A DNA stretch of 64,000 nucleotides, taken from the NCBI RefSeq assembly GCF_022846255.1, contig NZ_AP025682.1. The stretch is one strand, 5' to 3'. The stretch is from Escherichia coli (GTDB lineage Bacteria; Pseudomonadota; Gammaproteobacteria; Enterobacterales; Enterobacteriaceae). Under the pieces are notes generated by a model. The model was not told where the DNA came from. It made no database searches and saw only the letters and a program-made list of their open reading frames with translations. Position numbers and translations under genes: made by a program. The number at the start of each line of letters is the position of its first letter. Positions within the stretch are counted from its first letter, which is position 1. Positions 55,709-60,038 of this stretch are shown here, piece after piece.

Positions 55709-56767
55709 GTGCGTGCCGATAAGTCATTAAGCCCGTTTGAAATCCGGGTATACCGCCATTACCGCATTGTGCATGGTACTCGGGTCGCGCTGGCATTCCT
55801 GCTCACTTTTCTCATTATCCGCCTGTTTACTATCCCGGAAAGCACCTGGCCGCTGGTCACCATGGTGGTGATTATGGGGCCAATCTCGTTCTGGGGGAAC
55901 GTTGTCCCTCGTGCCTTCGAACGTATTGGCGGTACGGTGTTGGGTTCGATTTTAGGTCTTATCGCTCTGCAACTGGAGTTAATTTCGTTACCGCTGATGT
56001 TAGTCTGGTGCGCGGCGGCGATGTTTCTTTGCGGTTGGCTGGCGCTGGGCAAGAAACCGTATCAAGGATTATTGATTGGGGTGACGCTGGCAATTGTTGT
56101 GGGTTCCCCGACAGGTGAAATTGATACGGCGTTATGGCGAAGCGGCGATGTGATCCTCGGCTCTTTACTGGCAATGTTGTTTACCGGTATCTGGCCACAA
56201 CGGGCGTTCATCCACTGGCGCATTCAACTGGCGAAAAGTCTGACCGAGTATAATCGGGTCTATCAATCTGCATTCTCACCGAACTTACTCGAACGCCCAC
56301 GTCTGGAAAGCCATCTACAAAAACTGCTGACCGATGCCGTGAAAATGCGTGGGCTGATTGCGCCCGCCAGCAAAGAAACCCGTATTCCAAAATCGATATA
56401 TGAAGGTATCCAGACCATTAACCGCAATCTGGTTTGTATGCTGGAGTTGCAAATCAATGCATACTGGGCCACGCGCCCCAGCCATTTCGTGTTATTGAAC
56501 GCGCAAAAACTTCGTGATACCCAGCACATGATGCAGCAAATACTGCTGAGCCTTGTTCATGCGCTGTACGAAGGTAATCCGCAGCCGGTTTTTGCCAATA
56601 CGGAAAAATTGAACGATGCTGTGGAAGAGCTGCGTCTGTTGCTTAATAACCACCATGACCTGAAGGTTGTGGAAACACCAATCTATGGTTATGTGTGGCT
56701 GAACATGGAAACGGCGCATCAGCTTGAGTTGCTATCGAATCTGATTTGCCGGGCCTTGCGCAAATAA
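55709..56767 (+). CDS. yeeA: FUSC-like inner membrane protein
   Basis: 352 aa with a GTG start; several transmembrane segments. Confidence 0.85.
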   Translation: MRADKSLSPFEIRVYRHYRIVHGTRVALAFLLTFLIIRLFTIPESTWPLVTMVVIMGPISFWGNVVPRAFERIGGTVLGSILGLIALQLELISLPLMLVWCAAAMFLCGWLALGKKPYQGLLIGVTLAIVVGSPTGEIDTALWRSGDVILGSLLAMLFTGIWPQRAFIHWRIQLAKSLTEYNRVYQSAFSPNLLERPRLESHLQKLLTDAVKMRGLIAPASKETRIPKSIYEGIQTINRNLVCMLELQINAYWATRPSHFVLLNAQKLRDTQHMMQQILLSLVHALYEGNPQPVFANTEKLNDAVEELRLLLNNHHDLKVVETPIYGYVWLNMETAHQLELLSNLICRALRK

Positions 56768-56938
56768 TTCCTGAACTTCAGAATCATCTTGCTGCTGCTT
56801 CGATTCAGCAAGGATAAAGGGTATGATAGTGAAAAGGGATAAAAGCATTGTCATCTGCGGCAGCTATGAGTAATGTTGGCCCTATCGAATAGCGGTTGCT
56901 TAAACGAATCCGACTCTCACATTATCAGGGGTATAAAA

Positions 56939-57268
56939 ATGGAAACTACCAAGCCTTCATTCCAGGACGTACTGGAATTTGTTCGTCTGTTCCGTCGTAA
57001 GAACAAACTGCAACGTGAAATTCAGGACGTTGAGAAAAAGATCCGTGACAACCAGAAGCGCGTCCTGTTGCTGGACAACCTGAGCGATTACATCAAGCCA
57101 GGGATGAGCGTTGAAGCAATCCAGGGCATCATCGCCAGCATGAAAGGTGACTATGAAGATCGCGTTGACGATTACATCATCAAAAATGCCGAGCTCTCCA
57201 AAGAACGCCGCGATATCTCCAAAAAGCTGAAAGCTATGGGCGAAATGAAAAACGGCGAAGCGAAGTAA
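56939..57268 (+). CDS. yeeX: DUF496-family protein
   Basis: 109 aa from [18 protein letters not shown]...; the track ORF carries an N-terminal extension. Confidence 0.85.
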
Positions 57269-57368: not shown

Positions 57369-57590
57369 TTAGCGGCAGCCTTCTTCTGTATGCAGCAAGG
57401 CAAAAAGTTCTGTAACTCCATTGTTATTAACCGCACTGGTTACTAACACGTTGTGCGCTCCAGCTTCCCGTAACCAACATTTCACCAAAGATATTTGTTC
57501 CATGCTGGCTAAATCTGCTTTGGTTACTACTCCAATGACCGGGTGATTCATGGCCCGGTAGGGCGTTTTTACCTCTAATTCCTGCTTCAG
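57369..57590 (-). pseudogene. yoeF: C-terminal fragment of a PduV/EutP-family GTPase gene (yoeF-like remnant)
   Basis: Minus-strand translation ...PVIGVVTKADLASMEQISLVKCWLREAGAHNVLVTSAVNNNGVTELFALL carries the G4 motif TKAD but the N-terminal P-loop half is missing; the 5' side is replaced by IS66-type sequence. Confidence 0.6.
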
Positions 57591-57599
57591 CGCTGAGAT

Positions 57600-57781
57600 T
57601 CCTGCTTGTTGCCGGAAAAGCAGGCACCTGCCGTCTGAACGGTATCGATCCGGAAGCGTATCTGCGCCATATTCTGAGCATACTGCCGGAATGGCCCTCC
57701 AACCGTGTTGACGAACTCCTGCCATGGAACGTAGTTCTCACCAATAAATAAGCGTCAATATGGTGCTCCGTTGACGCTTAC
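57600..57781 (+). mobile_element. 3' remnant of an IS66-family insertion sequence (transposase C-terminus plus terminal inverted repeat)
   Basis: Plus-strand frame encodes ...AGKAGTCRLNGIDPEAYLRHILSILPEWPSNRVDELLPWNVVLTNK* (stop at 57749..57751), followed by an element end ...gttgacgcttac (reverse complement GTAAGCG..., IS66-type terminus) at 57770..57781. Confidence 0.7.
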
Positions 57782-57982
57782 TTTAATCCGTTTTCTGAGC
57801 TTAGATTTTTCTGTTCCTACCCAGACCGTGGATTTGGAATTCATTTTTTGTCAGGTCAATGCTAATCGTTAAAACGGCCATAACGCACCTCCACTGGAAG
57901 GTTTATCAGTAATATCCTACCGTTGCTTCATGGTCGGGGCGTCCATTCCATTATTATCGGTTTTCCTTTCTGTTTATAAATG

Positions 57983-58010
57983 AAAACGCCAGCTGTATTC
58001 AGGCTGGCGT
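57983..58010 (-). terminator. Rho-independent terminator downstream of yeeW
   Basis: Minus strand gacgccagcctgaatacagctggcg hairpin followed by TTTTC. Confidence 0.65.
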
Positions 58011-58165
58011 CAGGGGAAATGAAGCCTGTTGAGTGAGATTCACCGGTTCTGGTGCAGAAGCTGCAGATGGCGCAGGGTAAGGACATCTTCTCTTGCCTGC
58101 TTAATACAGGACAACAGTGCTGTTTCTGTGGTTAATGGCACTATACCCTGCATCACTGCATTGTC

Positions 58166-58360
58166 TTACAGCAACTGGTGAGGGCTGGCATAAGTTGCCG
58201 GTGTTTCGGTAGAGTCACGGTCATCCACCACGCGGAGTGAATAACCGTTTTCAGCGGCCTTATTAATCAGTTCAGTGATATTAACACCATCAATGTCAAC
58301 GACAATGTGCCCCATATCCAGCGCCTGTACGTTAACGCTGTCGGCTTCCAGTGTCATCAT
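58166..58360 (-). CDS. yeeW: CP4-44-type small protein YeeW
   Basis: 64 aa (MMTLEADSVNVQALDMGH...); its ATG overlaps the stop of the cbtA reading frame. Confidence 0.75.
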   Translation of the reverse strand: MMTLEADSVNVQALDMGHIVVDIDGVNITELINKAAENGYSLRVVDDRDSTETPATYASPHQLL

Positions 58361-58730
58361 TTCGCCTCCGGATACTTACCCAGGGTAATGTTATTTACCG
58401 TTCTGTAATTGTCGCGGGTCATCAGGCCGGTCGCCCTGCGAGCCCGGAGGATATCGATGCTGTTTATTAACTGAGAGCGGGTACAGGCGCTGAATCCCGG
58501 CTGGTCGGTAGCACCAGCGCGTATTTTTCCACGAGAAAGTTCACCGCATCACACAGTGAAATGCCTGCCTCAATATGCTGCTCAATCACACGTTCATCGG
58601 CAAAAGGTGTGTCATTCTGTGTGAGGCCATAGTGCTGGTCCAGCAGTCGGGACAGCAGTATCTGCCAGATTTCAACAGGAGACGGGCGAGAACTGGCCGC
58701 CTGCCCGGGTAATACAGGTAATGTTTTCAT
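58357..58730 (-). pseudogene. cbtA: CbtA (YeeV) toxin gene, frameshifted
   Basis: The first 71 codons ([35 protein letters not shown]...LVEKYALV) are followed by a frame change near 58510..58512; the -1 frame continues [51 protein letters not shown] and ends on the TGA overlapping the yeeW ATG, while the current frame stops at 58467. Confidence 0.75.
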
Positions 58731-58818
58731 ACTGAAGATTTTCCTGATATGCAGATATAAAAATGGAAAAGTGGCGTGGTGAAAACACCAGGCCGTAGCA
58801 GAAGGCTATTCTGGAGAG

Positions 58819-59187
58819 TTAATTTTTCATTTCGGGCGTCGGATAAACAGCCAGATAAACGTAACCACAACTGCTGAGGGTATCGGCTTTGCAGGTCAGC
58901 CCTTTTGCATACAGCGTGACGGTATGCTGATGGCGGGGATTCAGTTCACCGCTGGTGAGCATGAGCTCCAGTTGTTTCATCAGCAGCGGAAAGGCCTGGT
59001 CCAGGTGGTACGCATCTGCATCGCTGAACAGGCCTCTGATACCGGCGCGGTCGGCAAGGTAATGCAACCGGTTACCCTCCTGCACCAGACGTGCCCCGAA
59101 ACAGGGCGTCACGGTGCAGGGCAGCCCCCACCAGGGGCGGTCGTGATTGTCGTCGGGAAGTGTTGTCCCGGGGAGTGTGTCTGACAC
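58819..59187 (-). CDS. cbeA: CbeA (YeeU) antitoxin
   Basis: 122 aa (MSDTLPGTTLPDDNHDRPWWGLPCTVTPCFGARLVQEG...). Confidence 0.85.
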   Translation of the reverse strand: MSDTLPGTTLPDDNHDRPWWGLPCTVTPCFGARLVQEGNRLHYLADRAGIRGLFSDADAYHLDQAFPLLMKQLELMLTSGELNPRHQHTVTLYAKGLTCKADTLSSCGYVYLAVYPTPEMKN

Positions 59188-59262: not shown

Positions 59263-59484
59263 TCAGTTCAGGGTGACACTCATCAGGCGGACATACGGGC
59301 CAAAACTGTCCTTACGGCGTTCAGCAAACACGGCAAGAACGCCGGGAATATCCTGCACTTCACGACCGGTATACGCTTCAGCGCTGCCGTGCCAGCGGTA
59401 CTTACCGGTACAGAACGGAAAAAGACGGGATGCAGGATGCTGTTGGTGAATACGCATGGCTTCACCACGGGTGATAATTTTCAT
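59263..59484 (-). CDS. yeeT: DUF987-family protein YeeT
   Basis: 73 aa (MKIITRGEAMRIHQQHP...). Confidence 0.8.
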   Translation of the reverse strand: MKIITRGEAMRIHQQHPASRLFPFCTGKYRWHGSAEAYTGREVQDIPGVLAVFAERRKDSFGPYVRLMSVTLN

Positions 59485-59546: not shown

Positions 59547-60038
59547 TTAAAGCAGACCGTGTTCCGCAAAGGAGAAAACCTGGTTGCCACCGACTATCAG
59601 ATGGTCCGGCACCCGGATATCCACCAGGGCCAGTGCCTGTACCAGACGTTCGGTGATAAGCCGGTCTGCCTTACTGGGTGTGACTTCACCGGACGGGTGA
59701 TTGTGTGCCAGCACCACGGCAGCGGCATTGTGATACAGGGCGCGTTTAATCACTTCCCGGGGATGGACTTCCGTGCGGTTGATGGTGCCGGTGAAGAGGG
59801 TTTCACCGGCAATCAGCTGATTCTGGTTGTTCAGATACAGCACCCGGAATTCTTCACGCTCCAGTCCCGCCATGTTCAGAATCAGCCATTCCCGTGCCGC
59901 ACGGGTGGAGGTGAAGGGCACGCCGGGTTCATGAAGATGGCGGTCCAGGGTTTTCAGGGCCCGCAGAATGAGGCTGCGCTCGCCGGGCGTCATCTCTCCT
60001 GGCAGAAAGGAAAGTTGTTGCATTGTGCTTCTCTCCAT
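59547..60038 (-). CDS. yeeS: RadC-like JAB-domain protein (UPF0758)
   Basis: JAMM motif HNHPSGEVTPSKAD; the start may be the internal ATG (MQQLSFL...). Confidence 0.85.
   Translation of the reverse strand: MERSTMQQLSFLPGEMTPGERSLILRALKTLDRHLHEPGVPFTSTRAAREWLILNMAGLEREEFRVLYLNNQNQLIAGETLFTGTINRTEVHPREVIKRALYHNAAAVVLAHNHPSGEVTPSKADRLITERLVQALALVDIRVPDHLIVGGNQVFSFAEHGLL

Follow-up and report, generated by a model that had tools for sequence, protein, structure and literature searches.

This locus raises a simple question: does the toxin gene cbtA (yeeV), which lies beside the antitoxin gene cbeA (yeeU) in Escherichia coli, still encode a toxin, and if it does not, how did it lose this ability and what became of the antitoxin? 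We analysed a stretch of 64,000 nucleotides of E. coli DNA (contig NZ_AP025682.1, assembly GCF_022846255.1), which we call the window. An initial annotation, made from the letters alone, had claimed that cbtA is inactivated by a 1-bp frameshift while cbeA is intact. We find that cbtA in the window is a frameshifted pseudogene, and that the lesion is real, inherited and widespread.

The lesion in cbtA

The cbtA pseudogene occupies positions 58357..58730 on the minus strand. From the ATG at 58730 to the TGA at 58359-58357 direct translation covers 374 nt; this number cannot be divided by three and is one less than the length of the K-12 gene. We aligned the gene to the intact allele of K-12 MG1655 (375 nt), a check that the initial annotation had asked for, and found one gap only, at nt 221 of the gene. 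What is missing is the G in codon R74 (CGT) on the minus strand, lost between 58511 and 58510 (that is, between GTGC and TACC), so that GTG CGT ACC has become GTG C-T ACC (GTGCGTACC -> GTGCTACC). This is precisely the change, gtgcgtacc to gtgctacc, that had been proposed.

The two halves of the toxin can be seen separately in a tblastn search of the window with K-12 CbtA. Residues 1-73 are found at 58730..58512 in frame -3 with 98.6% identity and one change (L38Q), and residues 75-124 are found at 58509..58360 in frame -2 with 100% identity. The same search showed no second CbtA copy in the 64-kb window. With the G restored, the gene encodes a 124-aa protein, and the sole difference from K-12 CbtA is L38Q.

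Compared with the intact orthologues, the reading frame is broken: 73 native codons are followed by 14 nonsense codons and a premature TAA at 58469-58467, with a second TAA directly after it. The ORF in the present frame (58467..58730, minus strand) consists of CbtA residues 1-73 and 14 out-of-frame residues; both the ORF listing and direct translation confirm the early stop at 58467 and the 87-aa product that had been described for it. What is left of the 3' part of the gene (58357..58509, minus strand) encodes residues 75-124 out of frame, followed by the native TGA. This stop codon (58359..58357) overlaps the ATG of yeeW (58360..58358) as ATGA, and the shifted tail does end there, as the initial annotation had it. 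Two of its counts were wrong, however: the shift is preceded by 73 native codons and not by 71, and the native tail has not 53 residues but 50 as present, or 51 when R74 is restored.

The antitoxin gene and the surrounding island

The antitoxin gene cbeA (58819..59187, minus strand) sits immediately upstream of cbtA on the same strand. In the ORF listing it has a GTG start and encodes 122 aa; the product matches model positions 1-100 of the 101 positions of PF06154 in Pfam (E = 5e-53) and differs from K-12 CbeA at one residue only (D108G). The statement that cbeA is intact thus holds. Further upstream, yeeT (DUF987; 59263..59484) and yeeS (RadC/JAB family; 59547..60038) belong to the same module; both lie on the minus strand and were assigned from the ORF listing and the syntenic annotation of strain SMS-3-5. 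Opposite yeeS and the antirestriction gene runs a 307-aa ORF with a GTG start (59559-60482, plus strand); as a long antisense frame in coding DNA that is rich in GC, it is probably spurious. Frameshifts are annotated in other genes of this neighbourhood as well, namely in yeeA of O111:H8 8B (L004 4284-5081) and in yeeS of the duck isolate GS04 (L007 1016-1506).

Downstream of cbtA, yeeW (58166..58360, minus strand) is intact according to the ORF listing and the annotation of related strains. It encodes 64 aa that correspond to the N-terminal part of DUF5983, while a paralogous locus (L013) encodes a 150-aa protein with DUF5983_N and DUF5983. Variable annotation and a suspected programmed frameshift have been described for the genes downstream of cbtA (2026 paper, PMC13294457). 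Since translation of the frameshifted cbtA now stops 106 nt before yeeW, and not at the overlapping ATGA, the premature termination would remove the translational coupling between the two genes; yeeW has its own Shine-Dalgarno sequence, a GGAGG four bases upstream of the ATG. An NCBIfam scan of CbtA, CbeA and YeeW gave zero matches.

Between yeeW and the chromosomal core lies the decayed right end of a CP4-44-like island (57369..58132, no strand assigned), which was delimited by mapping the syntenic SMS-3-5 annotation with an offset of 39999. The same annotation identifies a DUF957 fragment (58040-58132, minus strand), a C-terminal fragment of a transposase (57614-57751, plus strand) and a 60-aa EutP/PduV fragment (57369-57551, minus strand), as well as the core gene tmaR (yeeX; 56939-57268), which adjoins the right end of the island, and the core gene yeeA (55709-56767). 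The gene order in the window is that of the right end of CP4-44 in K-12: yeeS, yeeT, cbeA, cbtA, yeeW, the DUF957, transposase and EutP fragments, tmaR, yeeA and sbmC. Over the surrounding 24 kb, several E. coli strains, SMS-3-5 among them, are 99.8% identical to the window. The patchwork of fragments between yeeW and tmaR recurs with an identical junction in 3,142 complete genomes of E. coli; because this junction is so common, the right end of the island appears to have decayed before it spread.

Frequency of the frameshift allele

How common is the frameshift allele? We searched a collection of 5,426 complete E. coli genomes with an exact 81-mer centred on the deletion and obtained 1,486 records without any mismatch, which corresponds to about 27% of the genomes. 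The same 81-mer with the G restored matched 1,775 records exactly, a count that includes some copies at other loci. Taking the 3,142 genomes with the yeeW-tmaR junction of island and core as the reference, the frameshift allele amounts to approximately 47%; at the CP4-44 locus it is about as frequent as the intact allele. A query with the cbeA-cbtA module gave a median of three matches per E. coli genome.

Eight of the frameshift records were opened: O157:H7 PV15-279, O111:H8 8B, APEC O1, SMS-3-5, and isolates from pig, duck, chicken and human. In all eight, a 374-nt gene lies at the same locus, it carries the RefSeq/PGAP label 'cbtA ... frameshifted', and both cbeA and yeeW are intact. On the other hand, K-12, an ST131 isolate, AZ 186 and ECSC054 have an intact cbtA at this locus. 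The frameshift is already known, in the sense that it is recorded in public annotation, and since about a quarter of the complete E. coli genomes share it, it has to be considered an ordinary lesion. Its impact on annotation is small, as RefSeq already labels the frameshifted pseudogene in many genomes. In full-text literature searches we found no paper describing the allele.

Origin and spread of the deletion

We compared haplotypes in a 1,157-nt alignment that extends from cbeA to the DUF957 fragment and contains nine frameshift haplotypes, including that of the window. All nine have a G at K-12 coordinate 1038, whereas the intact K-12 and ST131 sequences have an A. Because this SNP is linked to the deletion, a single origin is favoured. 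We infer from this small sample that the deletion arose once and spread by descent and by homologous recombination in an island of low diversity. Between strains, the island segment from cbeA to the DUF957 fragment (57574-59187) differs by 0-0.6%, and the adjacent tmaR-yeeA core (56000-57268) by 0.5-1.2%. The low diversity of the island suggests a recent spread by recombination or, alternatively, a homogenisation among paralogous islands.

A mosaic gene was found at the same tmaR/yeeA locus in a metagenomic sequence (L014 680-1053; ENA contig ERZ15185563 NODE_10483). In this cbtA, ~70 nt of the ypjF/ykfI type at the start give way to sequence that equals the window, G deletion included, and the gene is paired with a 125-aa CbeA variant. 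Such a composition is evidence of recombination between paralogous modules, and as the deletion is the same, it also agrees with a single origin.

The deleted base does not lie in a homopolymer but in the loop of a 6-bp inverted repeat. This repeat (GCTGGT...ACCAGC, 58500-58518) brackets the deletion, is followed by a T-rich run on the plus strand and scores as terminator-like, antisense to cbtA. Its arms are the same in the intact allele of K-12, where the hairpin can also form, with a loop that is one base longer. A recurrent mutation at a hotspot was rejected, since the site is no homopolymer and the linked SNP at coordinate 1038 favours a single origin. A templated repair at the inverted repeat is not supported, as the deletion neither improves the palindrome nor extends the pairing.

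Function of the truncated product

Next, we asked what the 87-aa product has retained of the toxin. The repaired CbtA covers the complete Pfam model PF06755 (CbtA_toxin; positions 1-112 of 112, E = 3e-57). The native product, in contrast, matches positions 1-73 of 112 only, and the loss of positions 74-112, or 39/112 (35%), leaves the domain incomplete. In a conservation alignment of 30 family members with 32-90% identity, 12 residues are near-invariant (conserved to 90% or more). Four of these, R74, D76, D93 and A97, are located after the break, the deletion having struck the R74 codon itself. An alignment-based AlphaFold model (mean pLDDT 82.3) contains five helices, of which the last two (91-100 and 106-116) lie in the part that is cut off. 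This model was used instead of a single-sequence AlphaFold model, which was discarded (pLDDT 57.7). No solved CbtA structure was found in a PDB sequence search, and Foldseek gave no significant fold match. Because 39 of the 112 domain positions, 4 of the 12 near-invariant residues and two of the five helices are gone, a loss of toxin function is the best reading. Judging from the alignment and the model, the 87-aa product, in which the CbtA_toxin domain lacks its C-terminal third, has most likely lost its toxicity or its stability.

The variation within cbtA can be examined as well, although the numbers are tiny. Among the sampled frameshift alleles there are two non-synonymous SNPs (A12T and L38Q) and no synonymous ones; between the intact alleles of K-12 and ST131 there are three SNPs, again a tiny number, and all of them are synonymous. 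The sampled frameshift alleles show zero SNPs in the 154 nt after the deletion, but as the overall diversity is only ~0.2%, this has no statistical power either way. Some frameshift alleles have acquired secondary lesions, such as a second frameshift, deletions that fuse the stump to downstream ORFs, or lesions in the 5' part; several of these are singletons and could be sequencing errors. Alleles of the intact lineage that are broken in other ways are present in the protein database, too. Small as the numbers are, the SNP pattern and the secondary lesions may point to a relaxed constraint on the frameshifted cbtA.

Among the broken variants in public genomes, P0003 has a second frameshift on the ΔG allele, and in P0004, P0006 and P0007 what remains of cbtA is joined through deletions either to the EutP fragment or to ORFs downstream. 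In P0023 (10 contigs) foreign sequence is joined after T75 of the CP4-44 toxin, and in P0021 the CP4-44 toxin is disrupted after residue 83.

A much less probable alternative is that the 87-aa fragment is functional and kept by selection, for example as a toxin of attenuated or separated function that can still bind FtsZ and/or MreB, or as a competitor of the paralogous toxins. Substitutions of R15 and F65 specifically abolish the binding of MreB and FtsZ, respectively (PMC5624674), and both of these mapped contact residues lie within the retained 73 residues. Moreover, the allele has a high frequency across lineages, and hundreds of database entries list its ORF (clusters P0001 with 236 members, P0005 with 151 and P0020 with 65). 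In the work of Tan, Awano and Inouye (2011), C-terminal deletions of YeeV reportedly still gave cell elongation, which would agree with a residual activity. These points have to be weighed against the missing 35% of the Pfam domain, with its four near-invariant residues and two predicted helices. Furthermore, both SNPs in the retained part of the frameshift alleles alter the amino acid, and some alleles carry, besides the frameshift, additional lesions in the 5' part or deletions. Finally, a high frequency is equally expected if the loss of the toxin is neutral or mildly beneficial in a recombining island of low diversity. We therefore consider it improbable that the product acts as an attenuated or single-target inhibitor of the cytoskeleton, or as a competitor that blunts the paralogous CbtA-family toxins. 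If it did, this would explain why one identical truncated allele is found at about half of the occupied CP4-44 loci across E. coli lineages.

Other classes of 87-aa products in the protein database ('...NFLVENT(R/H)W(C/Y)VPTSRDS...') were set aside, as they result from a different lesion, an A5-to-A4 deletion in a ypjF-like paralog. At the one such locus that was examined (L013 2501-2764; GCA_006385655.1, CP041054.1), the paralog is reduced to 87 aa by the change from A5 to A4 at a GAAAAAT run, and the neighbouring antirestriction, cbeA and DUF4942 genes are also split. At this locus the A5-to-A4 deletion is likely a homopolymer sequencing error, and since many neighbouring genes are split as well, we did not count this class as independent evidence.

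Recoding and assembly error

Could full-length CbtA still be made at a low level, by a programmed -1 ribosomal frameshift or by transcriptional slippage before the premature stop? In its favour, the -1 frame contains no stop between gene nt 183 and the native one, there is an A5 run (GAA AAA T, gene nt 203-207) upstream of the deletion, and none of the sampled alleles is damaged in its 3' part; the last observation, however, is explained by how little the island as a whole varies. Inspection of the sequence before the premature stop revealed no canonical X_XXY_YYZ slippery heptamer in frame 0, and the A5 run is the sole homopolymer of at least five bases there. A shift at this run would swap YALVR for IRAGA and in this way overwrite the near-invariant residues L72 and R74. 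A run of five A is also too short for efficient transcriptional slippage. Because there is no slippery heptamer and a shift at the A5 run would destroy conserved residues, we regard recoding as very unlikely. An internal start that would express the C-terminal part of CbtA was rejected, as the lone in-frame ATG in the 3' frame gives only 21 aa.

Least credible of all is a sequencing or assembly error in the window that conceals an intact cbtA: single-base indels are a common assembly artefact and the window is 100% identical to no RefSeq complete genome (best 99.7-99.8%), but the deletion site is not in a homopolymer, the linked flanking SNPs agree with the frameshift haplotype, and an error is excluded as the origin of the allele because the identical 81-mer recurs in 1,486 independently assembled complete genomes and because SMS-3-5, the closest relative opened (99.8% over 24 kb), has the deletion together with the 'frameshifted' label.

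Proposed explanation

In summary, we think it very probable that a CP4-44-like cryptic prophage remnant here carries the CbtA/CbeA type IV toxin-antitoxin (TA) module in a decayed form, in which codon 74 of the toxin is without its G and the antitoxin has been kept. The course of events was probably as follows. A single G was lost, probably only once, from codon 74 of the toxin gene, in the remnant beside tmaR (yeeX) and yeeA. Translation now runs through 73 native and 14 nonsense codons and halts at the double stop TAA-TAA, yielding a truncated 87-aa product that is most likely non-toxic or unstable. The deletion would have been inherited and moved across E. coli lineages by homologous recombination.

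After the loss of the toxin, cbeA would be useful or harmless, because, as the literature implies, CbeA targets FtsZ/MreB filaments and also paralogous toxins. CbeA counters its toxin by bundling FtsZ and MreB and not by binding the toxin (review PMC3827094, citing Masuda et al. 2012). In addition, each of the antitoxins CbeA, YafW and YfjZ neutralises all three toxins of K-12, YkfI and YpjF among them (PMC5371832). The initial annotation had spoken of an 'orphaned antitoxin'. This is correct in that an intact cbeA stands beside a broken cbtA, but the term is overstated, because CbeA targets MreB/FtsZ polymers and neutralises the paralogous toxins YkfI and YpjF, and because most E. coli genomes hold several such modules.

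The cbtA/cbeA pair described here is a clean natural example of the toxin-first decay of a TA module with the antitoxin kept. Studies of CbtA/CbeA use K-12, which carries the intact allele, whereas about half of the island-bearing strains, O157:H7, O111:H8 and APEC O1 included, carry the truncated one. For this reason, phenotypes of the CP4-44 CbtA of K-12 should not be extrapolated to such strains.

Comparison with known systems

The closest known system is the CbtA/CbeA (YeeV/YeeU) module of CP4-44 in K-12. It has the same locus and gene order as the window; the cbtA genes are one SNP and one indel apart, and the CbeA proteins differ in one residue. The K-12 cbtA, with 375 nt, encodes an intact toxin of 124 aa, whereas the gene in the window has one G fewer and its ORF ends after 87 codons.

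From the cbtA pseudogenes labelled 'frameshifted' in RefSeq, on the other hand, there is essentially no difference. APECO1_RS11150 (APEC O1), ECSMS35_RS05295 (SMS-3-5) and ECpv15279_RS14500 (O157:H7 PV15-279) have the same deletion, length and locus as the gene in the window, and there are 0-2 SNPs within cbtA between such pseudogenes and the window. The L38Q variant of the window (nt 113 A) is common to APEC O1, SMS-3-5 and 23CRST013. The YeeV truncations of Tan, Awano and Inouye (2011) are said to be N-terminal fragments like the product in the window, but they were reportedly over-expressed and did not have the 14-residue out-of-frame tail.

More distant are the two other modules of this type, YkfI/YafW of CP4-6 and YpjF/YfjZ of CP4-57. 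Their toxins are encoded at other loci and have 58-62% identity to CbtA, and tblastn detects neither of them in the 64-kb window. Both modules nevertheless belong to the same Pfam families as the module in the window, PF06755 and PF06154. [quoted passage not shown]
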